This document shows positions 930 through 12,644 of a stretch of 64,000 nt of DNA, piece after piece. Where the stretch lies: assembly GCA_963663865.1 (NCBI GenBank), contig OY760686.1, positions 2,112,001 through 2,176,000 of the forward strand, given 5' to 3'. Within the stretch, counting starts at the first letter, position 1. Each line of letters begins with the position of its first letter. The notes beneath the pieces are model-generated. The model was not told the DNA's origin, made no database searches, and saw only the letters and a program-made list of their open reading frames with translations. This DNA is from Spirochaetota bacterium. Lineage in GTDB: Bacteria; Spirochaetota; UBA4802; UBA5550. The translations under genes and the position numbers were made by a program.

Positions 930-1433
930 ATGAAAAATGAGATCGATATCGAATCTTATTATCACAAGTACGGGCCTATGGTTTACCGAAGATGCGTTTC
1001 GATTCTTCACGACGATGACAGAGCCTATGACGCCCTGCAGGAGGTTTTTATGAAGCTGATTACAAATTCGGCAAAGCTGGATGGATATTATCCATCAAGC
1101 CTGCTCTTTACGATCGCGACAAATGTATGCCTTAATATGCTCAGGGCAGACAGACACGCTCCGGCATACATAAATAGCGATGATATAGCCGAAAAGCCAA
1201 ATCCTGTGTCAGACAATATTGAAAACCGAGTAGCCGATACTGACTTGCTGGATAGGATATTCAGCCGTCACAAAGAGTCAACACGACTTATTGCATACCT
1301 GCATTACCGTGATGGAATGACGTTGAAAGAAGTCGCTGAGATCGCGGGCCTGTCTATTTCCGGTGTTAGAAAACGGCTAAGGAATCTTAAATTGGACGCC
1401 CTTCAATACATCTCTGTGGAGGAAGTACAATGA
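930..1433 (+). CDS. ECF RNA polymerase sigma factor
   Basis: 167 aa; region 2 (AYDALQEVFMKL, LFTIATNVCLNMLR) and region 4 HTH (DGMTLKEVAEIAGLSISGVRKRL). Confidence 0.93.
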   Translation: MKNEIDIESYYHKYGPMVYRRCVSILHDDDRAYDALQEVFMKLITNSAKLDGYYPSSLLFTIATNVCLNMLRADRHAPAYINSDDIAEKPNPVSDNIENRVADTDLLDRIFSRHKESTRLIAYLHYRDGMTLKEVAEIAGLSISGVRKRLRNLKLDALQYISVEEVQ

Positions 1434-2314
1434 AAATTTCAGATATATCTGATATCAAACTGGAACGTTTTCTTCTTGGTGAATTGCCTGACAAAGAAAT
1501 GCATGAAATTACTGCTGCCATTAAAAACACAGAGCTAAAAAATAGGATTGAAAGGATAAATAAACAAACCAGGAATTTCCAGAACGATTTTCGTACCTTT
1601 AATACCTTAAAACATCTAAAAATGTCAATTAAGGATAATAATCAAACAGTTAATATCTCAAAATATTTATTAACGATTGTTCCCGCAGCAGCAGCAGCGG
1701 TAATTATTCTTGTTATAAATTTCAACAACACACCGCATACAATCAACAACACCTCTGTGTCTTCAATCGCCGCAAATAGTAACAACACCACAGTTGCAAA
1801 TATTAAGAACAATTCTGTTATATCCGCATACAATCCAACAGATCATTCCAATGATACAACACGTATCAAGGGCGAACCCTCAATCTATCTATACTTAAAA
1901 GAACGTGGGAAGGTCAAACTACTGGAACCCGGATCGGAAGCCCATCAGGGCGATCTAATTCAAATAGCCTACTCTGTCCCATCTGACTGCTGGGGAACAA
2001 TTCTTTCATTAGACGGAAGGGGTGCTATTTCAACCCATTTGCCTCTGGACACATCAGGAAAAACAGCAATCAAGGCTGGCGGCAAACAACTTGTAAGTCA
2101 CTCATACGAGCTTGATGATGCGCCTCATTTTGAATACTTCCTATTTATTACATCACCAAAAGAATTTGAAATTAATCAAATATTAGAAGCCCTAAAGCTT
2201 GAGACAGATAAAATCATAAGTAATATAAACAATTCTGAAACTCCCGTTTTTAACCCTGGCAAGGAATATAAAATTTCCTCAATAATTATCAAGAAGGCAA
2301 GTTATGAAAAATAG
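1430..2314 (+). CDS. membrane-anchored anti-sigma-like protein with extracytoplasmic Ig-like (DUF4384/ActD-like) domain
   Basis: ATGA overlap with sigma gene; N-terminal helical domain (LERFLLGELP), one TM (LLTIVPAAAAAVIILVI), Asn/Thr-rich linker, TRIKG, then GDLIQIAY...ILSLDGRG...SYELDDAP. Confidence 0.75.
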   Translation: MKISDISDIKLERFLLGELPDKEMHEITAAIKNTELKNRIERINKQTRNFQNDFRTFNTLKHLKMSIKDNNQTVNISKYLLTIVPAAAAAVIILVINFNNTPHTINNTSVSSIAANSNNTTVANIKNNSVISAYNPTDHSNDTTRIKGEPSIYLYLKERGKVKLLEPGSEAHQGDLIQIAYSVPSDCWGTILSLDGRGAISTHLPLDTSGKTAIKAGGKQLVSHSYELDDAPHFEYFLFITSPKEFEINQILEALKLETDKIISNINNSETPVFNPGKEYKISSIIIKKASYEK

Positions 2315-4655
2315 TGCAAATATATACAGGATTCTAATTATTCTTTCATCTCTATTACTCTTTGTAGGCCTTGCAAATGCCGAGAGTAAAAATCATATAA
2401 GAAGGTTTTGCTTCGTTGCAGGAGCTAATGATGGTGGTATCGAAAGAGTAAAACTCAAGTACGCGGTAAAAGACTCTTATTCATTTTCCGGACTACTACA
2501 TTCAATAGGAGGAATATCGAAAGACGACTCACGTTTGCTTGTTAATCCACGAAGGGATGCTTTTTTAAAAGAGTTAACAGATTTTGCATCTTCAGTAAGC
2601 TCCATATCAAACAAAGATGAACGAACAGAGTTTTTATTTTATTATTCGGGACACTCAGATGAAAAATCAATTCTGCTTGGCAACGAGAATGTCAGTTATA
2701 CCGAAATCAGAGACATTATCAACCGAATTGATGCAGACGTAAAAATTGCCATACTTGACTCATGTTCATCAGGCGCTTTTACCCGGCTTAAGGGCGGCAA
2801 ACTACGCTCCCCCTTTTTAGTCGATGCAGCACACAACATGAAGGGTTTTGCTTTCATGACTTCAAGCTCCGTAGACGAAGCTTCACAGGAGTCCGACCGA
2901 ATCCGTGGTTCGTTTTTCACTCATTATCTTTTAACCGGACTTAGAGGTGCAGCTGACCTCAATCGCGACGGGAAAATTACTTTAAATGAGGCTTACCAGT
3001 TTGCTTACTTCGAAACCCTTGCCGGTACACAGCAGACTCTTGCCGGTCCGCAGCATCCGAACTATGCAATTCAAATGACTGGAACAGGCGACGTTATCAT
3101 GACTGACATTCGTCGAAGTTCATCTATTCTTGTAATTCCAGCAAGTATACACGGCAGACTCTATGTCAAAAACAGCAATGACATCCTCGTCTGTGAGCTC
3201 AGAAAAATGCCGGGCCAGGATATTGAACTTGGACTTGAAGAAGGAGATTATACAGTACTTCTTTCCCAGGAAGCCACTCTTCTCGAAGGGGAACTGGTCC
3301 TGCAGGAAGGTGAGAAAACTGAACTTAAATTAGATCTGCTCACCAGAGCTGATACCGAGTATACTCTTCAAAGAGGCACTAATCCAATGCCTGATATTCA
3401 AAAAAGTCAACATCAATATAATTTTGAGGAACAGGTGTGGTACTTCTCGCCAATATACCGCAAAAGCGGAAGAGAAAATATTCAAAATCGATTTGTTTTT
3501 AATCTCTTTGGGAGTTATTCTGCTGCAATCGACGGATTTAGTTTTGGTTTTGGCCCTACAGTAACAGAATATGACATGACAGGTTTTCATTGTTCAATAA
3601 TAGGGAACTATGCGGGCGGCAACGCAGAAGGCCTGTTATTCAGCAATATTTTCAATGTTGTTTGTCAAGATTTTGCCGGTGTTGAACACAGTGGTCTTTT
3701 TAACATTAATTATGGTGATACAAAAGGATTACAGTTAGCCTCACTGTTCAATATGTCCGACGGCGAAACCAAATGGGTCCAGATTTCAGGCCTTTTTAAT
3801 ACATCCGGGAAAGATTTTTATGGTTTCCGTATTTCTGGCCTTTTCAACTATGGTGGTAATAATTCCCACGGCTTTTCAGCCACTGGATTATTTAATCAAA
3901 CAGTCAATGACTTTTCGGGTGTAAACATTGCCGGCCTATACAACATATCTGGTGGTAAGGCTTCCGGTTTCCAGGCAGCCGGACTTTTTAACTATTCAGA
4001 GAAATCATCTTCAGGATTCAATGCCGCTGGACTGTACAATATAACACAAGATTCCTTCAAGGGTGTTAATATTGCCGGACTGTTCAACAAAGCTGACAAT
4101 ATTACCGGCGCTCAGATTGCACCAGTAAATATTTCTAAAAACGTTAAAGGTCTTCAACTCGGAGTAATCAACATAGCCGAAGAATCCGGAGGTCTTCCGA
4201 TTGGTATTATAAATGTATCAGGTGACGGCGGAATTGAGCTGGTCTGCTGGAGCAGCACAACCATGCTTTTAAATACAGGCTTTCTGTTCCGATCAGGATA
4301 TTTTTACTCAATCATTGCGGGTTCAACATTCAATTCAGAGTTCAGTGGCAAGGGTGATTCTTTCGGATACAGCTATTATGCCGGTGTACAGATACCTGTT
4401 TCAATATTATTTTTCAGCGTTGACGTGGGCCAACTGACAGTGGACAACAAAAAGATTTTTGACTACTCTTCATCGAACGACTTCCAGGTACTTCAGGGAA
4501 GATTGTCTGCTGGGATAAAAATATTGAATCGAATCTCATTTTTTGGCGGAACATCAATAAACTATAAATATACCTATGACCGATTTAAAGACGGAAAGCT
4601 TGAGGCTGAATACTTTGGAGGAGTTAGACTGTCTGTCTTCGGTAAAAATTTATAA
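2304..4655 (+). CDS. exported caspase-family (peptidase C14) protease with LA_2272-type repeats and probable C-terminal beta-barrel
   Basis: Signal peptide (…GLANA); catalytic dyad motifs YYSGHSD and ILDSCSSG; GSFFTHYLLTGLRGAADLNRDGKITLNEAY; 16-aa G-x-x-x-A/S-G-L-F-N repeats; amphipathic beta C-terminus. Confidence 0.88.
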   Translation: MKNSANIYRILIILSSLLLFVGLANAESKNHIRRFCFVAGANDGGIERVKLKYAVKDSYSFSGLLHSIGGISKDDSRLLVNPRRDAFLKELTDFASSVSSISNKDERTEFLFYYSGHSDEKSILLGNENVSYTEIRDIINRIDADVKIAILDSCSSGAFTRLKGGKLRSPFLVDAAHNMKGFAFMTSSSVDEASQESDRIRGSFFTHYLLTGLRGAADLNRDGKITLNEAYQFAYFETLAGTQQTLAGPQHPNYAIQMTGTGDVIMTDIRRSSSILVIPASIHGRLYVKNSNDILVCELRKMPGQDIELGLEEGDYTVLLSQEATLLEGELVLQEGEKTELKLDLLTRADTEYTLQRGTNPMPDIQKSQHQYNFEEQVWYFSPIYRKSGRENIQNRFVFNLFGSYSAAIDGFSFGFGPTVTEYDMTGFHCSIIGNYAGGNAEGLLFSNIFNVVCQDFAGVEHSGLFNINYGDTKGLQLASLFNMSDGETKWVQISGLFNTSGKDFYGFRISGLFNYGGNNSHGFSATGLFNQTVNDFSGVNIAGLYNISGGKASGFQAAGLFNYSEKSSSGFNAAGLYNITQDSFKGVNIAGLFNKADNITGAQIAPVNISKNVKGLQLGVINIAEESGGLPIGIINVSGDGGIELVCWSSTTMLLNTGFLFRSGYFYSIIAGSTFNSEFSGKGDSFGYSYYAGVQIPVSILFFSVDVGQLTVDNKKIFDYSSSNDFQVLQGRLSAGIKILNRISFFGGTSINYKYTYDRFKDGKLEAEYFGGVRLSVFGKNL
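3495..4225 (+). repeat. intragenic ~48-nt (16-aa) degenerate tandem repeats, LA_2272-family surface repeat
   Basis: GFRISGLFNYGGNNSH / GFSATGLFNQTVNDFS / GVNIAGLYNISGGKAS / GFQAAGLFNYSEKSSS / GFNAAGLYNITQDSFK; boundaries approximate. Confidence 0.8.
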
Positions 4656-4666
4656 AACATAAATAC

Positions 4667-4697
4667 AAAAAACCGCGGTAAAAAACCGCGGTTTTTT
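4667..4697. terminator. bidirectional intrinsic terminator
   Basis: AAAAAACCGCGG-TAAAAAA-CCGCGGTTTTTT between the convergent caspase gene and tRNA-Arg. Confidence 0.8.
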
Positions 4698-4884: not shown

Positions 4885-7494
4885 CTAAACGTCTACATTT
4901 TCCATCTCGATTATATTGTTCTGTGCGATCGCAAGCTTTGCAAGTGGGATTGAATAAGGCGAACATGAAACATAATTCATCCCTGTATTCATACAAAATC
5001 GGATATTATCCGGATTTGCACCATGTTCACCACACAGCCCCATCTTGATATCCGGCCTGGTCAGTCTGCCCCGTAGAGCAGCCAGCTCTATCAGCTCCTT
5101 GACTTCATCGCCAAGTAGATTAAATGGATTGTGTTTCATTAAGTCATAAAGAGAATAATCCGGGAAGAAAGTCGTAGAATCATCTCTTGAGAGCCCATAA
5201 GTTGTCTGAGTCAGGTCATTGGTGCCGAAGCTGAAAAATTCCGCATATTGTGCTATATTTCCAGCACCCAGAGCGGCGGCAGGAAGTTCAATCATTGTTC
5301 CAATTTTACAGTCAAGATGGTCAATACCGTATTCTTCTAGAACCTCTTTTTTTACATCAAGGATTCCCTTAACCATTTGACCTTCAATTTTTTTGCCATT
5401 TTTAATAAACTTAACTTCCTGTTCACTCATAACGATAGGTATCATTATTTCTGGTAAAACTTTTACGCCTTCTTTTTTGAGCATACATGCTGCCTCAAAA
5501 ATTGCTCTAACCTGCATTTCGTAAATCTCTGGATATGTTACAGCTACACGGCATCCTCTATGCCCGAGCATCGGGTTCATTTCAGCAAGATCAGAACATC
5601 TTGCCTTTAGATCTGCCGGCTTAAGGTTTTTCTGCCTCGTTTTCATGTATGTGATGAATTCATTCATACTATCATCTGTTCTCGGCAGAAATTCATGTAG
5701 CGGGGCATCAAGAAGACGGATAGTTACAGGCTTATCCGACATGATTTTCAACAGTTCATAAAAATCTGCTCTCTGCATCGGTTTTAGTGCATCAAGGGCC
5801 TTAAGTCTATCTTTATCATCTGTAGCAATTATCATTTCACGGAATTTCATTATGCGTTTTTCATTAAAGAACATGTGTTCAGTTCTGCAAAGTCCGATTC
5901 CAACAGCCTTAAAATCACGGGCAACTAAAGCATCTCGCCCCTGATCGGCGTTTGCGCGAACATTAAAATCTGTGACATATCCATCAACTATTTCCAGGAA
6001 ATCATTAAGCCCATTTGTTTTAAAATCAGGCTGGATCAAACCGACTTTTCCAAGATAGATCGTCGGATCTTCGTAGTAAGGGACATTAATTGAAATATAG
6101 TCGCCTTCTTTTACTGTTTTCCCGCCAATAGTCAGTGAATTTTTCGTCAGCTTCATGTCAGGTTGAACCATGGCGACCTTTCCAAGGCTTCTTGCAACAA
6201 CAGGAGCATGAGATGAGAATCCTCCCTCAGTCGTGATAACACCCTGAGCAACCTCAATAGCCTTAACATCTTCTGCAAAAGAAGACGGAAGTACCAAAAT
6301 GAGATTTTTATCCTCGCCGTGCATTATTGCTTTTTTGTATTCATCGAGAAGCCTTGGCGTAGAGAAGAAAACACGGCCTATAGCAGCTCCAGTTGATCCT
6401 GCGATTCCTCCCTTTATTGATTTAACTGTTTTAATTGTTCGAGGATCAATAACTGGATGGAGAAGTTCGTTTAATTGATTGGGCTTAATTGTTTTAATCA
6501 GCTCTTTTTTCTCTATTATACCACGGCTGCATAAATCAAGGAGAGTTTTTATCTGTGCCTGTGTTGACTTTTCATCACACTCTCTCTGTTCGACAAGCCA
6601 GAAATCATTCTCTTCAATAGTAAACTTTACATCTCTAATCTCATGAAAGTTGTCTTCAATACTCTGGGCCATCTGTGAAAGCTTTTTTAAGTACCCTTTG
6701 TCTATCGAAGACAATGCTCGTGCCTTGCCTTTCGTCAGATCAAATTCATTTTGCAAATATTGTCCTTGAATTTCTTTTTCTCCGGTGATTATATTACGAG
6801 TGTAAAAATTACCCGCATACGAATTGTCACCAAAATTACCATAAACCATAACTTGAACAATTATAGACATTGAATCATCAACGTCTATTTCAGAATCGCA
6901 GTATTTTGAAGCTGCCTGTTTCAATATCAGACTAAGTTGATCATAAGGGTCTAGCATGAATTCTTCGCCAAATTCCTTTAAATACGCACTAATCATTTCA
7001 TCTGATTTTTCCTTTGTACCTTTTTTTGCCGCAAACGGCGCTTCAAACTTCTTAATCTCATCTGCGGTCATATCGAAAAGATACTGCCCGACCCTCCTTA
7101 GTAAAAACAAAAATTCACCGTTTGCGAAATCCCTGTCAGTAAATTTTGCAAACCCTTTTACGGTTTCAAAGTTTAGCCCGATATTGTGAATTGAAGGAAA
7201 AAATGGTATATTGAGGTCAGAACTCAACACTACCTTCAGAAGAAGAGGTTTGTTTGAATCACCATACTTCTTCTTTGTTTCTTTTTCAAGATTTGTGATG
7301 TGTGACTTTAGCATTTCCTTTAGATTTACATTTGGAAGCTTTTTCGTTAAAACCGAATCTATAATAAAGCCTGGAGCTATTGGCAATCCCATCAATGCAA
7401 GATCAACTGCTCTTCTGCCCCTGATACCAATTTTCTCTTTTTGCTTTGCAGGTATTTCTTTTAAATCTTTATTGAAATAAATAATATTTTCCAT
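4885..7494 (-). CDS. ppdK: pyruvate phosphate dikinase-like PEP-utilising protein with degenerate nucleotide-binding domain
   Basis: His domain TTEGGFSSHAPVVARS; PEP/pyruvate barrel GIGLCRTEHMFF, TIRLLDAPLHEFLP, GTMIELP, FSFGTNDLTQ, GLCGEHG; N-terminal ATP-grasp motifs altered. Confidence 0.88.
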   Translation of the reverse strand: MENIIYFNKDLKEIPAKQKEKIGIRGRRAVDLALMGLPIAPGFIIDSVLTKKLPNVNLKEMLKSHITNLEKETKKKYGDSNKPLLLKVVLSSDLNIPFFPSIHNIGLNFETVKGFAKFTDRDFANGEFLFLLRRVGQYLFDMTADEIKKFEAPFAAKKGTKEKSDEMISAYLKEFGEEFMLDPYDQLSLILKQAASKYCDSEIDVDDSMSIIVQVMVYGNFGDNSYAGNFYTRNIITGEKEIQGQYLQNEFDLTKGKARALSSIDKGYLKKLSQMAQSIEDNFHEIRDVKFTIEENDFWLVEQRECDEKSTQAQIKTLLDLCSRGIIEKKELIKTIKPNQLNELLHPVIDPRTIKTVKSIKGGIAGSTGAAIGRVFFSTPRLLDEYKKAIMHGEDKNLILVLPSSFAEDVKAIEVAQGVITTEGGFSSHAPVVARSLGKVAMVQPDMKLTKNSLTIGGKTVKEGDYISINVPYYEDPTIYLGKVGLIQPDFKTNGLNDFLEIVDGYVTDFNVRANADQGRDALVARDFKAVGIGLCRTEHMFFNEKRIMKFREMIIATDDKDRLKALDALKPMQRADFYELLKIMSDKPVTIRLLDAPLHEFLPRTDDSMNEFITYMKTRQKNLKPADLKARCSDLAEMNPMLGHRGCRVAVTYPEIYEMQVRAIFEAACMLKKEGVKVLPEIMIPIVMSEQEVKFIKNGKKIEGQMVKGILDVKKEVLEEYGIDHLDCKIGTMIELPAAALGAGNIAQYAEFFSFGTNDLTQTTYGLSRDDSTTFFPDYSLYDLMKHNPFNLLGDEVKELIELAALRGRLTRPDIKMGLCGEHGANPDNIRFCMNTGMNYVSCSPYSIPLAKLAIAQNNIIEMENVDV

Positions 7495-7530
7495 TTTTTT
7501 CTCCAGTATTTCTTCTTTAGATTAATAATC

Positions 7531-8433
7531 CTAGAAAAGATTAAGCACTTTACCCACTCCGATTTTCAAGAACTGCTCAAATCTGTGGCTGGCGCCTTCA
7601 TAAAGATATTTCTGCAGCTTTGAAATGCCGCGAATATCCTCTCCTGCCACCTGGAAGAAAATTGAATCACCATGTTTAACCTTCCCCCATTTAAAAAGCG
7701 CATTTATGTCATTTATGAGTTCATTCTGGTGGTATATATATACCTTCAAGTCAGGATATTTCGTTGTGAAGCTTTCAATTATCTTCTTCCATGCTTCTAC
7801 ATTTCCATTGTGAAATAATTCGTTTGAAACCTGCACCGCATATTTGGGCGTTACATTCTTTTTAGATGGTGCGGCCTGAGTAACCGGTTTTTTTACCGGC
7901 AATTTCGGAGCAATAGTTTGATCAATAAAATCTGGACTTATAAAAACATCTTTTCCAGACATCATCTCCTCAATAGCATTAATGGCGTCCTGCTCAACTT
8001 TTTTATCATTTTGTTTTATAAACCTTGCGTAAATAACCGCAAGCTGATCCTGCACTATTTCACGAACCCTTTCCCAGTGTTCCGGATTCTTTGGATTAAT
8101 CAGCAATACCTTCCCGCCTGACGTAAAGTAAACGATAACGATATCAACAGCGGTCCACTTCATCGTTTCAGTATATATACTTTCAAATTCATTGAGATTT
8201 GAAAGGAGATTTATTGATCTTGCTGAATAACCGTAACGGTCTCGCAACAATGCCCCTACAACTGGCAATATCTGATCTTGACTAACTTCCTCTTCATCAA
8301 GAAAAGTATTCATAACATCCGCCAGGTTTCGTTTCGCTTCCATATCAGCAACTACATCGTTAACAGAATAAAAATGCCTCAATGCCTTGTTGAAATTACT
8401 CTTTGTAGCCAGCGAATAATATGTGGTGTCCAT
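7531..8433 (-). CDS. conserved spirochete protein between cfpA and ppdK with C-terminal HPr-like domain
   Basis: 300 aa, AGGAG RBS; C-terminal part VQVSNELFHNG…KVKHGDSIFFQVAGED resembles HPr (ITNETGLHARP…GVKKGDEITISAEGED). Confidence 0.75.
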   Translation of the reverse strand: MDTTYYSLATKSNFNKALRHFYSVNDVVADMEAKRNLADVMNTFLDEEEVSQDQILPVVGALLRDRYGYSARSINLLSNLNEFESIYTETMKWTAVDIVIVYFTSGGKVLLINPKNPEHWERVREIVQDQLAVIYARFIKQNDKKVEQDAINAIEEMMSGKDVFISPDFIDQTIAPKLPVKKPVTQAAPSKKNVTPKYAVQVSNELFHNGNVEAWKKIIESFTTKYPDLKVYIYHQNELINDINALFKWGKVKHGDSIFFQVAGEDIRGISKLQKYLYEGASHRFEQFLKIGVGKVLNLF

Positions 8434-8469
8434 ACCAAATCTCCTTTTTGCAATTTTACGTGATAGAAT

Positions 8470-8498
8470 ATACTATGATATTGCACTATAATATGCAA
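8470..8498 (-). promoter_or_regulatory. candidate sigma-70 promoter for the HPr-like/ppdK pair
   Basis: TTGCAT-N17-TAGTAT on the minus strand. Confidence 0.45.
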
Positions 8499-8519
8499 GT
8501 ATTTTGAAATATTTCCTGT

Positions 8520-8549
8520 AAAAAAAGGGGAAGCCTAACCGGCTTCCCC
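8520..8549 (-). terminator. intrinsic terminator of cfpA
   Basis: GGGGAAGCC-loop-GGCTTCCCC followed by a T7 tract on the minus strand. Confidence 0.85.
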
Positions 8550-8576
8550 CTGTATTTATGCTGATTCATTGCTTGG

Positions 8577-10526
8577 TTATATCTCAGTAAGGCCTGATCT
8601 CTTTTTTCTTCCCTTTGATGCGGATGGAAGCTCAACAGATCCTGAAGCTTCGCTATCGGACTGTGCGCTATACGCTGCAGCAAAAAGATCATCACCAGTC
8701 GCTCCTTCATCGGCGAAAGACTGCGTAATATCTTCCCGCATTGTTGAACGTCTTCTGCTGTAAGTAGCGAATGCTGCATCTGCAAATCCTTTTGAAACAC
8801 TGTAAAGAAACTCATTAAGTACGTTTGACATACCCTTAAGCATATACTGCTTACGTTTAATTGTTGTTATGTCAATATCAAGGATAAGTCCCGGCTGAAT
8901 ATGATGAGGATTTACCAGATATGTAAACTGGTTGAATCTCTTCTCAAGGAAGTTTATTCTTTCATCAAGGATAACACGCTCAACGGGATTCTGATATCCA
9001 TGCATTCCTTTAAGCAGGTCTTTCAGGTAAACAAGCTTGCCTTTAAGATTTTTAATTCTCTGCTCATAAGTTCTGTTATTCTTTTCAACAAATGTATCTT
9101 CATTGTATAGCTCTCCGACCTCATTCCATATTATTGACTCAGGATCAGCCTCTCTCATTTTCTTCTCACGCTTCCAATCCTTATTCATGAGTCTGCCGGC
9201 GAGATCATCAAAATCCTTCAGAGATCTAAATCTCTTTCTGGATTCATAATAAGCATGGACTACTTCCCAAACTGCCATTATCTCAGTTGTGAATGCCGAC
9301 ATTTGCTTGTCGTACTCTTTTTTCTCCTCTCTAAGCTGATTCTGATCGAGAAATGCGAGCCTCATTCCATATCTTTCATCAGGCAGAAGAGTGTGATCTA
9401 CCTCTTCATATTCTCGAATATTACATACCCTTGCGTTTTTCATGTTATCGCAAACCTGATATCCGAGTTTACTTGTATCGAGAATTGAAGTTATCGAGTT
9501 AATACATGTGTTGTATCCCCTGTTTCGAATATTCTCTTCATCAATTATATGCTTGATATTCTCACGGATATTCAGCGGGTCAAACTCATCAAGATCTATC
9601 TCGGCTCTAAGGCCCTCAATTTTATCAAGGAATTTTTTAGCGAGGATAGTATATCGTTTCGATTTCTCATCCTCTTTCTCGTCGTCAGTGAATCCCTCTA
9701 TTCTCTTAACTTTTTCAAACATTTTCTCGGCAGCTGTAAGTTCATTCTTTCCCTGATCGACGAGCTCATCATTAAATTGCTGAACCTGTCTGTCGATAAG
9801 ATCCTGGATATGCTTCTGGATCGCATCTTTCATCAGAGCTTCTACAGTTGTCTGATAATGGTACATTGGACTAACAAGCTCACTGTCGAGAATGTTAATT
9901 GAAAGTTTAACATCATAAACATATTTAGGACGGAGTTCATTGTCTTTAAAAACGCATTTTAGAATCGCGTAGGCGTTCTCGCCTCTGACGAAAGCTCCAA
10001 CATCTGTCTTCTGTCTTAAAATTGCGTTTGTTTCTGTTTCCAGATCATTTACACCTCTCTGAATATGTCCCTGAAGGTGGCCATACATGTTTACAATGGA
10101 CTTTTCTATCTCACCGGTATGAAACTTGTCAGCGCCGCCAATTTTGTCCAGCATCTCGACAATCTCTTTCGGTGTATACCTGGCAAGACCCTTTGATTCT
10201 TCTTTATCAACAAAGTCCCTGACCTTTTTGATAAACTCATCTTCCATTGTAACCGTGTAGCGGTTAAACATATTAACATATGTCTGGTTGATGTAGTTAT
10301 AAAGCTTCTCCTTCAAACCGCCCATTACATCAAGCTTTTCAAGGACTTCGTCCGGGAGCTTGGTAAGAACCTGATTTAAAATCTTGTCAGCTGTTTCATC
10401 AACGATCAGCTTTCCTTCTTCTACCTTATTTCGGCCTTCCTGTGCCAGTGATTCCCTTGAACCAACCGCATTGGGAATGGTAGGGTGGACTTTATTCGGG
10501 CTTTTTGGAAATTGAGTTAAAGACAT
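8577..10526 (-). CDS. cfpA: cytoplasmic filament protein A
   Basis: N-terminus FPKSPNKVHPTIPNAVGSRESLAQ matches spirochete CfpA; ETNAILRQKTDVGAFVRGENAY, ENIRNRGYN; coiled-coil rich; AAGGAGG RBS. Confidence 0.93.
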   Translation of the reverse strand: MSLTQFPKSPNKVHPTIPNAVGSRESLAQEGRNKVEEGKLIVDETADKILNQVLTKLPDEVLEKLDVMGGLKEKLYNYINQTYVNMFNRYTVTMEDEFIKKVRDFVDKEESKGLARYTPKEIVEMLDKIGGADKFHTGEIEKSIVNMYGHLQGHIQRGVNDLETETNAILRQKTDVGAFVRGENAYAILKCVFKDNELRPKYVYDVKLSINILDSELVSPMYHYQTTVEALMKDAIQKHIQDLIDRQVQQFNDELVDQGKNELTAAEKMFEKVKRIEGFTDDEKEDEKSKRYTILAKKFLDKIEGLRAEIDLDEFDPLNIRENIKHIIDEENIRNRGYNTCINSITSILDTSKLGYQVCDNMKNARVCNIREYEEVDHTLLPDERYGMRLAFLDQNQLREEKKEYDKQMSAFTTEIMAVWEVVHAYYESRKRFRSLKDFDDLAGRLMNKDWKREKKMREADPESIIWNEVGELYNEDTFVEKNNRTYEQRIKNLKGKLVYLKDLLKGMHGYQNPVERVILDERINFLEKRFNQFTYLVNPHHIQPGLILDIDITTIKRKQYMLKGMSNVLNEFLYSVSKGFADAAFATYSRRRSTMREDITQSFADEGATGDDLFAAAYSAQSDSEASGSVELPSASKGRKKRSGLTEI

Positions 10527-10705: not shown

Positions 10706-11806
10706 TTATGAAGCAAAATATTTAAAAGTATAGTTTTTAACCTTAAAAACATCGCCGTCTTCAATAAAGCCCTTATCCTCAGAATTTTTAAACTCCACCT
10801 TAATTCCTTCAGGAACGAGCAATGACAGAGAGATTCCCCCTTTTGCTCCACGGACAGCCTTAAGAGCGAATGAAGCTCTTGCGGCGAACTCTCTGATATT
10901 TAGATGACAACCGGCTCCTTTTCCAATTACTATGACCCTGGAGTTAAACCTGTTAATGTCAAAGTGCTCAACAACTGGATTTAATATTTCATTATTCCAG
11001 TATTCAATCCTGCCATGCGCCTTGAGCTGCGAAAATCTTCTGATAAGCACTATCAATATTATAAGAATTATTATAATAGCTGCTATTATTCCGGCCCCTG
11101 CAATTTCCGAAGAAGACACGCTTCTCGAATCTACGGCTGCTTCAACCTTCTCAAGGCCCTTTAGCGGCTCGTCGCTTGCATCAATGACTCTGACATTACC
11201 CTTTACCGAAGCAGCATCGCCATCACCAGCAGCCCCCTGACTGCCCGCCTTTTCTTGATCGCTTTTCCCTTTTTTTAAACCGGCATAATCCACAATATAT
11301 ACCCACCAATCCTTTCCTTCATAATGGTCGGCTATGTTCTTGATATTTGCCCTTCTTGCGGAACCGGGTGAAGGATCGTCGATACCGTCAGTCATAACTA
11401 CAATAACAACCTGTGAATCGGGATTGTCCATTTCAAGCTCGGCCGCCCTTCTGCGAACTTCTTCAATCATCATCGCGGTATTTGTCCATTTCCCGCGGGT
11501 GGTTGTCATTTTTATAAACTTTTTCAGGATATCCTTGTCGTTTTTGTCCTCGATTTTGACCGTTGGGTATACCTTTACCCTCTCATCAAATGTAACAAAA
11601 GTAACATTATCTGAGTTTGAGAGGCCATCAATGTATGACGATATACTCTCCTTTACCTGATTAATTATGTCCTTGCCTCCCGAGCCGGCCATGCTGTAGG
11701 ATGAGTCCAGGACAAGTATGACGTTTCTGTCCTTTGCCAAAAGCTCAACACCCAAAATCGGGATAACAAGCACAGCAAGGAAAAGGATACTCAATACTTT
11801 CTTCAT
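10706..11806 (-). CDS. VWA-domain membrane protein with cytoplasmic FHA-like C-terminal beta domain
   Basis: Signal peptide; MIDAS DSSYSM, T, VMTDG; TM helix; C-terminal VIVIGKG…IEDGDVFKVKNYTFKY. Confidence 0.8.
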   Translation of the reverse strand: MKKVLSILFLAVLVIPILGVELLAKDRNVILVLDSSYSMAGSGGKDIINQVKESISSYIDGLSNSDNVTFVTFDERVKVYPTVKIEDKNDKDILKKFIKMTTTRGKWTNTAMMIEEVRRRAAELEMDNPDSQVVIVVMTDGIDDPSPGSARRANIKNIADHYEGKDWWVYIVDYAGLKKGKSDQEKAGSQGAAGDGDAASVKGNVRVIDASDEPLKGLEKVEAAVDSRSVSSSEIAGAGIIAAIIIILIILIVLIRRFSQLKAHGRIEYWNNEILNPVVEHFDINRFNSRVIVIGKGAGCHLNIREFAARASFALKAVRGAKGGISLSLLVPEGIKVEFKNSEDKGFIEDGDVFKVKNYTFKYFAS

Positions 11807-11888: not shown

Positions 11889-12644
11889 TCAATATTCCCT
11901 GTAAGTCTTTTCTGTTCTCACGTATTTTCTAAAATCAATCTCAACTTCAGACTTTACATCAAGATACTCATTCATCAAAATAAAAAACCACATCATTGTG
12001 TCTTCCTGAGTTTCGAGAGCTATAAAGGATCTGGGCTCCCTCCAATTTTTTACTATTATACCTTTATCCGCAATCATCATAATATCAAATTCGTGTTCAC
12101 TATCAATATTGTTATTCGTATAATAATTCAGGATATCATTCTTTATTTCCATCATTCCGCTTGAGGTCCCGCCGGCGATTACAAATGATGGAACACGAAC
12201 GTTTCTGCCGCTCTCTTCATCAGAATACATTGACAGTTTTTTAACCCCGCTGACCCGATTGACAACTTCCTGAAGATTCTTTTTATCTAGATTATCCACG
12301 GCAAAAACTGCCCCGCGAACAATCGAAAAAGGGACACATCCATCCATAATCTTTACTATGTCTCTGCAATATGGATGAAATATCAGCAAATCGGCACCGT
12401 CTGGAGCGAACCCTCCGGCATCAACCGGCCGAGCTGAATCAATAGCAAGATTTGCAGGGATAATACCGCTCAAACTCTCTTTAAGTGATTTCATGTCGAT
12501 CTTGACGGACGTCTTCTTTGACTCGGTCCGTGGCTTTGCCTTTACACCCTTCTTTACAGCGGAGGATGTCTTTTTCGAGGCCGATGCCCTATCTGATTTT
12601 TTTACAGCTTTTTTTAAGAAATTGGCAAAATACTTTTTAAACAT
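11889..12644 (-). CDS. DUF6602-like (PD-(D/E)xK fold) protein with Lys-rich N-terminus
   Basis: ADLLIF…VPFSIVRGAVFAVDNLDKKNL…VSGVKKL pattern; first ~50 aa Lys/Ser/Ala rich. Confidence 0.55.
   Translation of the reverse strand: MFKKYFANFLKKAVKKSDRASASKKTSSAVKKGVKAKPRTESKKTSVKIDMKSLKESLSGIIPANLAIDSARPVDAGGFAPDGADLLIFHPYCRDIVKIMDGCVPFSIVRGAVFAVDNLDKKNLQEVVNRVSGVKKLSMYSDEESGRNVRVPSFVIAGGTSSGMMEIKNDILNYYTNNNIDSEHEFDIMMIADKGIIVKNWREPRSFIALETQEDTMMWFFILMNEYLDVKSEVEIDFRKYVRTEKTYREY

Follow-up and report, generated by a model that had tools for sequence, protein, structure and literature searches.

A pyruvate, phosphate dikinase paralogue and an HPr-like protein encoded beside cfpA in Spirochaetota: a possible PEP-dependent phosphorelay

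The window analysed here is a stretch of 64,000 nucleotides from a Spirochaetota bacterium (assembly GCA_963663865.1, contig OY760686.1). Between positions 4885 and 10526 it carries, on the reverse strand, cfpA, a gene for a 300-aa protein of the TP_0747 type (P0002) and a gene for an 869-aa paralogue of pyruvate, phosphate dikinase (PPDK), P0001 (Table 1). The locus elements named in a preliminary description of this DNA were all confirmed in place, and the observation is real. The product of the first gene is CfpA (903.8 bits to NCBIfam NF040882, with a cut-off of 500), and the start codon of the P0001 gene is located 36 nt past the stop codon of the P0002 gene. The terminator reported between cfpA and the pair is present as a stem-loop reading from 8551 to 8525; within the window it parts cfpA from the two other genes, an observation that counts against a tie to cfpA. 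The promoter proposed to follow cfpA fared less well: a TTGCAT-17-TAGTAT sequence (8/12) can be found by eye, but it is weak and is absent from the output of the promoter scan.

Table 1. Genes, protein domains and other features of the cfpA locus (window coordinates)
Feature	Position	Strand	Basis
cfpA, cytoplasmic filament protein CfpA, 649 aa	8577..10526	-	ORF; NCBIfam NF040882
Terminator-like stem-loop with T-run, 26 nt past the cfpA stop	8525..8551	-	11 pairs, 7 G-C, loop 5, then TTTTTT
P0002 gene (300-aa TP_0747-type protein), RBS AAGGAG upstream	7531..8433	-	ORF
P0002 N-terminal half, residues 1-170: three helices and first HPr-like domain (about 68-160)	7924..8433	-	AF2 model
P0002 C-terminal HPr-like domain, residues 195-300	7534..7851	-	AF2; VIA-align
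His208 codon, candidate phospho-acceptor, inside invariant motif NELFHNGNVEAWK	7810..7812	-	orthologue alignment
P0001 gene (869-aa PPDK paralogue), RBS GGAG upstream	4885..7494	-	ORF; Pfam; NCBIfam; 1dik alignment
P0001 N-terminal ATP-grasp-derived domain, remodelled nucleotide site, residues 1-340	6475..7494	-	residue table over 75 orthologues
P0001 central swivelling phospho-histidine domain, residues about 345-505	5980..6462	-	Pfam PEP-utilizers at residues 396-469
P0001 PEP/pyruvate-binding TIM-barrel domain, residues 510-869	4888..5967	-	Pfam PEP-utilizers_C, 1.1e-68
Terminator-like stem-loop downstream of the PPDK-like gene	4667..4697	-	13 pairs, 6 G-C, loop 5

The arrangement recurs in other Spirochaetota. 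The three genes were found on one strand and in the same order in 30 of 30 loci; of 80 MAG loci, 79 have the PPDK-like gene after that of P0002, and 70 have cfpA ahead of it. Homologues of P0002 are present in 111 of the 122 genomes of the order and in 110 of the 301 genomes of the phylum, and cfpA is present in 111 of the 301. Of the 110 genomes that bear P0002, 109 gave a match to the N-terminal domain of the paralogue (E<=1e-35), and none of the 191 others did. All three genes occur in 108 of the 301 genomes and none of them in 189, a pattern that includes lineages with the genes on different contigs; in several lineages cfpA is unlinked from the pair. The order that the preliminary description named for Treponema is likewise found in published tables: in T. 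denticola, TDE0842 is cfpA, TDE0843 a hypothetical gene and TDE0844 PPDK (PMC3914990 Table 5), and in T. pallidum TP0746 (PPDK, 901 aa) and TP0748 (CfpA, 678 aa) are both listed on the reverse strand, at a distance of about 4.6 kb (PMC3373638).

P0001 is collinear with the PPDK structure 1dik across 845 residues (E 1.2e-154) and matches the PPDK model TIGR01828 end to end (model positions 9-865) with 695.5 bits, which is under the cut-off of 843.45. Its catalytic histidine, His429 (codon 6208-6210, reverse strand), is part of a GGFSSHAP motif and aligns with His455 of 1dik, and the CRTEH, RLLDAPLHEF, GTMIE, FGTNDLTQ and LCGEHG motifs are all retained in this alignment. All 75 of the orthologues compared have the catalytic histidine. 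In a set of 55, His429, R537, R593, D596, E736, N759, D760 and C821 show no variation, which upholds the claim that the protein keeps the phospho-histidine and the PEP/pyruvate barrel motifs. Identity between classes is the same for the paralogues and the canonical PPDKs both in the histidine domain (0.55 and 0.55) and in the PEP domain (0.63 and 0.63).

The situation is different for the ATP-grasp-derived domain, where the PPDK_N Pfam match is confined to residues 258-314. K22 is replaced by arginine (R25 of P0001) in all 75 orthologues, R92 by valine in 72 (V89 of P0001) and by alanine in 3, and E323 by lysine in 42 (K290 of P0001) and by arginine in 31; the PGMMDT and QGEDVVAG motifs are lost. 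The residues and motifs that the paralogues have lost are retained in 12 of 12 canonical spirochaete PPDKs. This is also the sole domain that evolves faster in the paralogues (identity between classes 0.36, versus 0.61 in canonical PPDKs). The nucleotide motifs had been described as decayed. Replacement of the ligands and loss of the motifs in the orthologues bear this out, but since the new residues are conserved in their turn (R25 in 75 of 75, lysine or arginine at 290 in 73 of 75), the site is, to judge from the sequences, remodelled under relaxed constraint rather than freely drifting. G23, R25, K87, S91, H103 and Q303 are invariant in the domain. K87 lies two residues ahead of the lost arginine, on the same strand, and could partially substitute for it. 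Because the domain is still constrained and K87 is located near the lost arginine, some ligand-binding or catalytic role may survive there.

Searches with P0002 in Pfam, NCBIfam and PDB sequences returned no matches, and comparison with HPr by hhalign gave probabilities of 0.1% and 0.8%; no sequence method detects HPr. The AlphaFold2 model (pLDDT 92.8), on the other hand, contains two HPr-like domains. The first of them (residues 68-160) has no conserved histidine and superimposes on NPr 5t17 with Z 7.2 and rmsd 2.2 (80/85 residues aligned). The C-terminal one (about 195-285) matches HPr in its beta-alpha-beta-beta-alpha-beta-alpha order and folds alone with pLDDT 91.8. A Foldseek-independent search with the whole-protein model placed the HPr family on top (E. 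coli HPr 9s8b_C, Z 7.6, rmsd 2.3, 81/85 aligned). With the C-terminal domain alone, the top 29 VIA-align matches were all HPr or Crh (Z 8.0-6.0, next fold 5.8); the best was 1opd (rmsd 2.0, 78/85 aligned), whose Z of 8.0 still falls within the range that the tool's own scale calls middling. Of the 40 Foldseek matches listed, 27 are HPr or Crh, including the first 7; no Foldseek E-value was lower than 0.015. As modelled, the relationship of P0002 to HPr is structural only.

In the model, His208 immediately precedes helix 209-225, at the helix-1 N-cap, which is the place of His15 in HPr. All 55 of the linked orthologues have it, and across 70 diverse homologues its conservation is 90% or more. 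An HPr-like C-terminal domain with His208 at the His15 position had been suggested by eye, and the predicted fold and its top structural matches agree with this; the fold and the conservation of the histidine were among the points on which the preliminary description had been ready to give up the idea, and on neither did the result go against it. The position of the invariant Arg17 of HPr is taken by Gly210. The most conserved stretches of P0002, 202-218 and 242-255, span helices 1 and 2, and the helix 1/helix 2 face is the one with which HPr contacts its partners.

Structure prediction of the P0001-P0002 complex gave a score of 0.56, while the best of three controls scored 0.00. The verdict is weak support. 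Of 80 solved complexes 58 attain this mark, as do 2 of 110 mismatched pairs; scores of 0.60 or less were obtained for only 7 of the 80 solved complexes, plus both mismatched pairs that pass. The prediction runs share at least 73% of contacts, with partner pLDDT of at least 80. Since complexes of enzyme I (EI) with HPr are solved, the pass of the PPDK-like protein with its 300-aa partner may reflect likeness rather than binding.

We tentatively read the locus as encoding an enzyme-I-like PEP:protein phosphorelay that derives from PPDK and is linked to the CfpA filament, a reading to which we give slightly less than an even chance. P0001 would use its TIM-barrel and swivelling domains to transfer a phosphoryl group from PEP to His429, as PPDK and EI do, and free pyruvate, as the invariant catalytic residues suggest. 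To judge from its sequence, it can no longer run the ATP/AMP-PPi partial reaction in the normal way: substitutions of the ATP-grasp ligands are found in every orthologue, and relaxed constraint is seen in this domain only. The phosphoryl group would then pass to His208 in the C-terminal domain of P0002, to which the HPr fold, the invariant histidine at the active-site position, operon linkage and the weak complex pass point. Finally, the N-terminal half of P0002, the enzyme or both would rest on the CfpA ribbon, and the PEP/pyruvate state of the cell would be translated into phosphorylation at the filament. If true, this would be a new PEP-driven signalling pair on the internal filament of spirochaetes.

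The enzyme-I-like reading of the preliminary description stands in part: the PEP half-site, the remodelled ATP site, the HPr fold with its invariant histidine, the linkage, the phyletic pattern in common with cfpA and the weak complex pass agree with it, and the lack of a helical HPr-binding subdomain and of a sequence link to HPr does not. As in EI and HPr of the PTS, including the regulatory variants EI-Ntr/NPr, which serve no sugar transport, P0001 has a PEP-binding TIM barrel and a swivelling phospho-histidine domain (PF02896, PF00391), P0002 has the fold of HPr with a histidine at the helix-1 N-cap, and the predicted logic runs from PEP to enzyme histidine to carrier histidine. Unlike EI, P0001 is paralogous to PPDK, with an N-terminal domain of ATP-grasp origin (107.4 to TIGR01417, cut-off 341.7), and has no Pfam match to the N-terminal helical HPr-binding domain. 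Unlike HPr, P0002 is 300 aa long, contains two HPr-like domains, lacks an HPr sequence signature and has glycine for Arg17. The pair is also associated with a cytoskeletal gene rather than with transporters. In DhaM, the phosphoryl donor of PEP-dependent dihydroxyacetone kinase, EI/HPr-type phospho-histidine modules are re-used to bring PEP-derived phosphate to a dedicated target. The proposed pair might, by analogy, re-use PTS-type modules for a non-transport task, but its architecture and target differ, and the DhaM model matches the true EI proteins of the genome, not the pair.

The paralogues form a single clade in the tree (75 of 75, support 0.999, branch 1.26). Since the host genome encodes elsewhere a canonical PPDK (1392.7 bits), two EI-family proteins, HPr and HPrK, the cfpA-adjacent pair is an extra system. 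P0001 could instead be a working metabolic enzyme, either a PPDK isozyme with an unusual nucleotide/phosphate site or a PEP-to-pyruvate converter, with P0002 as a filament or membrane adaptor or an allosteric regulator rather than a phospho-acceptor. P0001 has the three domains, catalytic histidine and complete PEP/pyruvate site of the Clostridium symbiosum (1dik/1kbl) and Flaveria (5jvl) PPDKs, and N-domain invariants such as R25, K87 and Q303 remain. One 1.1 Mb genome (G200, 99% complete) lacks pyruvate kinase and encodes no PPDK homologue other than the paralogue, so a metabolic PEP-to-pyruvate role is possible. The database label is 'Pyruvate,phosphate dikinase', as in the T. pallidum and T. 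denticola papers, and TDE0844 is reported as abundant in T. denticola (PMC3931704). However, P0001 differs from PPDK in that it scores below the equivalog cut-off, belongs to a separate long-branch clade and is always paired with a TP_0747-type gene. R92 and E323, described as directly ATP-binding, have given way to other residues, the former in 75 of 75 orthologues and the latter in 73, QGEDVVAG and PGMMDT are gone, and constraint is relaxed in the N-terminal domain only. Most carriers also retain a canonical PPDK, which is over the cut-off in 202 of the 301 genomes, and pyruvate kinase is present in 4 of 5 tested 'paralogue-only' genomes. A plain adaptor would, moreover, leave the invariant histidine at the HPr active-site position unexplained. 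We consider a metabolic role unlikely.

It is less likely still that P0001 autophosphorylates from PEP and serves another acceptor, either a small molecule in the remodelled N-terminal domain or a protein such as CfpA or a genuine HPr, with His208 structural or ligand-binding. The intact catalytic histidine and PEP site would allow this, the new invariants H103, K87 and E127 could make a new site, the support from the complex prediction is weak, and P0002 has neither an HPr sequence signature nor an equivalent of Arg17. Against this stand the location of the P0002 gene directly upstream of the enzyme gene (79 of 80 loci), co-occurrence in 109 of 110 genomes, an invariant histidine at the active-site position of an HPr fold, and complex-test controls that all scored 0.00.

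We infer the step from the pair to the CfpA filament from gene linkage, co-inheritance of the genes, one fusion and published co-fractionation. The filament is implicated in division and chromosome structure. The fusion is a single metagenome protein (P0133), in which CfpA (626.8 bits) precedes the N-terminal half of P0002. A second long 'homologue', P0107, is evidently chimeric. In an envelope fraction of T. denticola, TDE0844 was identified as band 1 and CfpA as band 3 (PMC3931704 Table 2). In the literature searched, TP0747 is unmentioned, TDE0843 occurs only in one table, and no published placing of TP0747/TDE0843 or TP0746/TDE0844 on the filament was found. That both proteins are chiefly structural, for instance as inter-filament bridges or membrane anchors of the CfpA ribbon, with the enzyme fold a scaffold and no physiologically relevant phosphotransfer, is very improbable: this would fit the co-fractionation, the strict co-occurrence with cfpA, the CfpA-P0002 fusion and the title of a 2004 tomography paper by Izard et al., which reportedly speaks of 'novel bridging and anchoring components', but a pure scaffold needs no class-wide invariant PEP-site residues and catalytic histidine, the histidine and PEP domains are constrained as in true PPDKs, and His208 and its surrounding motif are invariant. 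The proposed phosphorelay shares with the CfpA ribbon of Treponema its gene neighbourhood and phyletic distribution, and, as published for T. denticola, TDE0842-0844 are jointly repressed in co-culture (PMC3914990 Table 5).

ORF calling places cfpA, the gene of P0002 (a 300-aa protein of the TP_0747 type) and the gene of P0001 (an 869-aa PPDK paralogue) in the window as three successive ORFs on the minus strand. In an NCBIfam search, CfpA passed the equivalog cut-off of NF040882. A terminator and a candidate promoter had been proposed between cfpA and the downstream pair. The former was recovered as a strong hairpin with a T-run, while the latter, with an 8/12 match only, is absent from the promoter scan list. 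A VWA-domain protein is encoded directly upstream of cfpA, and an ORF of 251 aa that belongs to no family is also located upstream. Their homologues are found 5′ of cfpA in 23 and 19, respectively, of 80 related loci, all of the window's own group; the conserved cluster may therefore exceed three genes. On the plus strand, an ECF-type sigma factor, a 294-aa ORF and a caspase-domain protein form a tight set (930-4655), no member of which was detected among the 80 related loci.

Features of the cfpA locus and its surroundings (window positions)
Feature	Position	Strand	Remarks
ECF-type sigma factor	930-1433	+	
294-aa ORF	1430-2314	+	overlaps the sigma-factor gene
783-aa protein	2304-4655	+	caspase (Peptidase_C14) domain
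Second hairpin	4697-4667	-	3′ of the P0001 gene
P0001 gene, 869 aa	4885-7494	-	PPDK homologue; start 36 nt past the P0002 stop
P0002 gene, 300 aa	7531-8433	-	good ribosome-binding site
Terminator-like hairpin, strong	8551-8525	-	11 pairs and a T-run; 3′ of cfpA
cfpA, 649 aa	8577-10526	-	NCBIfam NF040882, 903.8 bits (cut-off 500)
VWA-domain protein	10706-11806	-	Pfam VWA, 5e-13
251-aa ORF	11889-12644	-	no family

P0001 has the three-domain architecture of PPDK and is collinear with it over the full length: residues 13-861 align to positions 9-865 of the NCBIfam model TIGR01828, and residues 15-859 align to the C. symbiosum enzyme (1dik_A, E 1.2e-154). The TIGR01828 score, 695.5 bits, is below the equivalog cut-off of 843.45 bits. 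Pfam recognizes the PEP-binding barrel (PF02896, 1.1e-68), the mobile His domain (PF00391, 1.9e-10) and, of the nucleotide-binding domain, a piece of just 57 residues. The preliminary description regarded the phospho-His and the PEP/pyruvate barrel motifs as kept, and this is indeed the case. Compared with 1dik, the barrel motifs and the catalytic His429 within GGFSSHAP are intact; all 75 orthologues have this His, and in a 55-sequence alignment it is invariant together with R537, R593, D596, E736, N759, D760 and C821, which we take, following the PPDK literature, to be residues of the PEP/pyruvate site. The PEP barrel and the mobile phospho-His domain are common to P0001 and PTS enzyme I (EI). 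The N-terminal helical HPr-binding domain of EI is absent among the three Pfam matches of P0001 at E ≤ 0.01, and the score with the EI model TIGR01417 is 107.4 versus a cut-off of 341.7.

Key columns of the nucleotide-binding half were tabulated for 75 orthologues of the paralogue and 12 canonical PPDKs extracted from spirochaete genomes. In the paralogues, K22 is replaced by Arg (75/75), R92 by Val in 72 sequences (V89 in P0001) and by Ala in 3, and E323 by Lys (42 sequences) or Arg (31 sequences; together 73/75), while the PGMMDT G-loop and the QGEDVVAG motif are lost; all of these elements are retained in 12/12 canonical PPDKs. They are the nucleotide, Mg and phosphate ligands of the ATP-grasp site (C. 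symbiosum numbering). In plant PPDK, Arg95 and Glu324, the equivalents of the Arg and the Glu, bind ATP directly, as stated in a passage of PMC5507339. When sequences of the window's order were compared with those of other classes, identity in the N-domain was 0.36 for the paralogue vs. 0.61 for canonical PPDK; the values were equal in the His domain (0.55 and 0.55) and in the PEP domain (0.63 and 0.63), so relaxed constraint is confined to the N-domain. The 55-sequence alignment reveals new invariant residues in this domain (R25, K87, S91, H103 and Q303), and the change is therefore not free drift. Thus, the nucleotide-binding motifs, described earlier as decayed, have had their ligands replaced or lost, but the domain around them has not been drifting freely. 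K87 might be a partial stand-in for the lost Arg. In a tree with canonical PPDKs, all 75 paralogues group in one clade (support 0.999), and the branch between them and the canonical enzymes measures 1.26 substitutions per site.

Six genomes (G137, G150, G160, G168, G196 and G202) have a cfpA-linked PPDK paralogue of 965-972 aa. The N-domain match is split into two pieces, about 1-146 and 167-339, so the helical sub-domain contains an insertion of roughly 100 residues.

A search of 1.84 billion representatives retrieved 194 homologues of P0002, including 89 at E ≤ 1e-30, and conservation of His208 and the residues around it is 90% or higher across 70 diverse sequences. In 55 P0002 orthologues whose loci also supplied the enzyme sequences, V202, N204, E205, F207, H208, N209, G210 and N211 are invariant (55/55), as are V212, E213, A214, W215 and K216. 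The AlphaFold2 model of P0002 (pLDDT 92.8) starts with three helices and a domain with the HPr order of elements (68-160); after a disordered linker, another domain of this kind follows at about 195-285. Both domains are beta-alpha-beta-beta-alpha-beta-alpha, the DSSP order of the C-domain is that of HPr, and His208 is modeled immediately before helix 209-225, the first of the C-domain. A Foldseek-independent structure search with P0002 returned the HPr family in the first five places, with E. coli HPr (9s8b_C) matching residues 195-283 (Z 7.6, rmsd 2.3, 81/85 aligned) and NPr (5t17) matching residues 68-160 (Z 7.2). When the C-domain was folded alone (pLDDT 91.8), the top 29 rows of VIA-align were all HPr/Crh, with Z of 8.0-6.0 vs. 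5.8 for the next fold, a Z near 8 being “middling” in the calibration of the tool; the aligned ranges, which start from model residue 5 or 6 and chain residue 1, put His208 at most one residue from His15. In Foldseek, HPr/Crh occupied the first seven rows for the lone C-domain (probability 0.94-0.99, TM up to 0.67), with E-values for P0002 matches of at least 0.015; E ≤ 0.001 was never reached with either the whole model or the lone C-domain. Judging by the models, P0002 is of the HPr-type fold, with a histidine predicted at the position of the HPr active site.

No corresponding signal was seen at the sequence level. P0002 had nothing meaningful in Pfam, NCBIfam or PDB sequences (phmmer), and a 70-homologue profile matched PDB sequences in chance-level rows only (E ≥ 0.22). 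Neither the hhalign comparison of profile A1 with the genome's own HPr (probability 0.1%) nor that of the C-domain profile A4 with 31 spirochaete HPrs (probability 0.8%, E 0.066) was significant. The HPr signature G-x-H-A-R-P with Arg17 is not found in P0002: the position +2 from His208 is the invariant Gly210, while R17 is invariant in the 31 spirochaete HPrs. K45 and S46 are also invariant in these HPrs; the sole, non-significant profile alignment has a gap at this place, and P0002 has Ala245 before LFKWG. Having the fold and the position of the histidine, yet no HPr sequence signal, P0002 therefore cannot be filed as a member of the HPr family. Of the HPr-like C-terminal domain that had been aligned by eye, the fold and the placement of His208 stand, but sequence profiles do not support it and the residue matching Arg17 is a glycine. 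Sources name the P0002 family “hypothetical protein”, and an Atlas lead points to a cluster (score 0.80) in which 98% of members have PF27497 (TP_0747_N, Pfam 38.1).

The order cfpA, P0002 and PPDK-like gene on one strand was present in 30/30 loci of the window's order. In a set of 80 loci of named MAGs (Spirochaetota, Spirochaetales, Oceanispirochaeta and one Treponema MAG), P0002 is followed by the PPDK-like gene at 79, the other one being cut by a contig end, and preceded by cfpA at 70. Eight of the 10 loci without cfpA have less than 320 nt of upstream DNA; in L057 and L064 upstream DNA is present, yet there is no cfpA.

Gene content was compared in a phylum sample of 301 genomes, each at least 90% complete. 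cfpA is present in 111 of them and P0002 profile matches in 110; the paralogue N-domain, at E ≤ 1e-35 (canonical PPDK N-domains score 1e-7 to 8e-33 in this search), was detected in 109 of the 110 P0002-bearing genomes and in 0 of the 191 others. A comparison of the lists gives 108 genomes with all three genes and 189 with none, and since the genomes are related and thus not independent, the counts serve as a description rather than as a statistical test. The exceptions are G162 (the pair without cfpA), G037 (cfpA only), G349 (partial cfpA only) and G355, which has no paralogue-level PPDK N-domain match. Genomes in which the three genes are not physically linked still have them together.

Constant adjacency of cfpA to the pair was considered and rejected: cfpA is on another contig in genera g45 (7 genomes) and g36 (2 genomes), the five small f38-family genomes have all three genes on separate contigs, and cfpA is distant in G131 and G355. 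In the latter genome, the CfpA match (G355:C1:2249885-2251645) lies inside a 2159-aa open frame with one internal TAA, and the TP_0747-type gene is 160 kb away from it.

The window's genome also contains a canonical PPDK (1392.7 bits with TIGR01828), two EI-family proteins (604.9 and 438.6 bits vs. a cut-off of 341.7), an HPr kinase and an ordinary 88-aa HPr. This genuine HPr, with His15 and Ser46, is encoded at locus L006 (G000:C1:1333624-1336863), directly after an HPr kinase/phosphorylase gene.

Complex prediction was performed with whole P0001 and the P0002 C-domain, both supplied as alignments; its output does not include the interface. The score of 0.56 (runs 0.56, 0.48 and 0.60), against 0.00 for the best of three controls, is graded “weak support”. 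Of 80 solved complexes, 58 reach this mark, as do 2 of 110 mismatched pairs; scores of 0.60 or less were seen for just 7 of the 80 solved complexes and for both passing mismatches. The runs share at least 73% of contacts, with partner pLDDT of at least 80. Solved EI-HPr complexes exist, so the pass may stem from likeness to them.

The metagenome protein P0133 (841 aa) combines a full CfpA (626.8 bits) with the N-terminal half of a P0002 homologue; this one case may be a natural fusion or result from a lost stop or an assembly or gene-calling artefact. A search for longer homologues gave no fused forms, which is weak evidence by the tool's own note. Another candidate, P0107 (488 aa), was rejected, being a chimera of a P0002-type N-terminal half with a LigA (DNA ligase) fragment.

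In the envelope fraction of T. denticola, the P0001 orthologue TDE0844 is the top band and CfpA the third (Table 2 of PMC3931704), and TDE0842-0844 are repressed together in co-culture (Table 5 of PMC3914990). For T. pallidum, a table of PMC3373638 lists TP0746 (annotated PPDK) and TP0748 (annotated CfpA) on one strand, and none of the three genes is named in the main text of the interactome paper (PMC2386257). The literature searched assigns no function to TP0747/TDE0843 and does not propose an EI/HPr-like role for the pair; TP0747 is mentioned in none of these papers and TDE0843 in one.

The most economical and most likely reading is that P0001 and P0002 constitute a PEP-driven relay. P0001 would phosphorylate itself from PEP, as PPDK and EI do, with its nucleotide site probably no longer used normally, and the phosphoryl group would then go to His208 of the HPr-fold C-domain of P0002. 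The other half of P0002, and perhaps P0001 as well, would sit on the CfpA ribbon, and the relay may affect the filaments. Shown by the analysis are the residue pattern and the fold, together with conservation, linkage and co-occurrence of the genes. Several findings speak against it, and they leave room for alternatives. P0001 may still work in metabolism as a divergent enzyme, with an adaptor tethering it: its N-domain is still constrained, with K87 possibly replacing the lost Arg in part, and G200 (1.1 Mb, 99% complete) has this paralogue only and no pyruvate kinase, but pyruvate kinase is present in four other paralogue-only genomes and the ATP ligands have been replaced throughout. Alternatively, P0001 may hand its phosphoryl group to another acceptor, given that P0002 has no sequence homology to HPr and the complex score is weak; the invariance of His208 and the joint inheritance of the pair favor P0002. 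Another point against the relay is that P0001 has no EI-type HPr-binding domain. That both proteins are purely structural filament accessories agrees with their co-occurrence with cfpA but fits poorly with an invariant catalytic site in P0001.

PEP-dependent His relays are already known; the relay proposed here differs in its PPDK scaffold, its tandem-HPr-fold carrier and its coupling to a cytoskeletal gene, and would be a new version of this known kind. It would mean that a central metabolic enzyme has turned into an EI-like protein kinase and that the HPr fold has been re-used outside the PTS. We consider it less likely than not that CfpA-bearing spirochaetes, including the treponemes of syphilis and periodontitis, have a third, hitherto unrecognized kind of PEP-dependent phospho-His relay, in which a PPDK-derived EI analogue with a lost ATP site and a tandem-HPr-fold carrier are both physically part of the ribbon, as its bridges or anchors. 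In that case, the only T. pallidum gene with a “PPDK” annotation would encode an enzyme of signalling rather than a dikinase that forms ATP.

The filaments of CfpA were recognized decades ago, and cells that lose them have division and chromosome defects. The analysis names two strictly co-inherited candidate partners of CfpA and pinpoints two histidines, His429 and His208. It also calls into question the “pyruvate phosphate dikinase” annotation of the cfpA-linked gene in treponemes, whose product is missing ATP-binding residues, and this bears on reconstructions of energy metabolism in organisms without another PPDK.

In about 30 cfpA-less genomes of family f19/genus g62, two PPDK-family matches each were found, with the best E near 1e-262, whereas canonical PPDKs typically give stronger matches (E = 0); in G253, P0001 is matched only in part. 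The f19/g62 matches may represent another divergent PPDK lineage.
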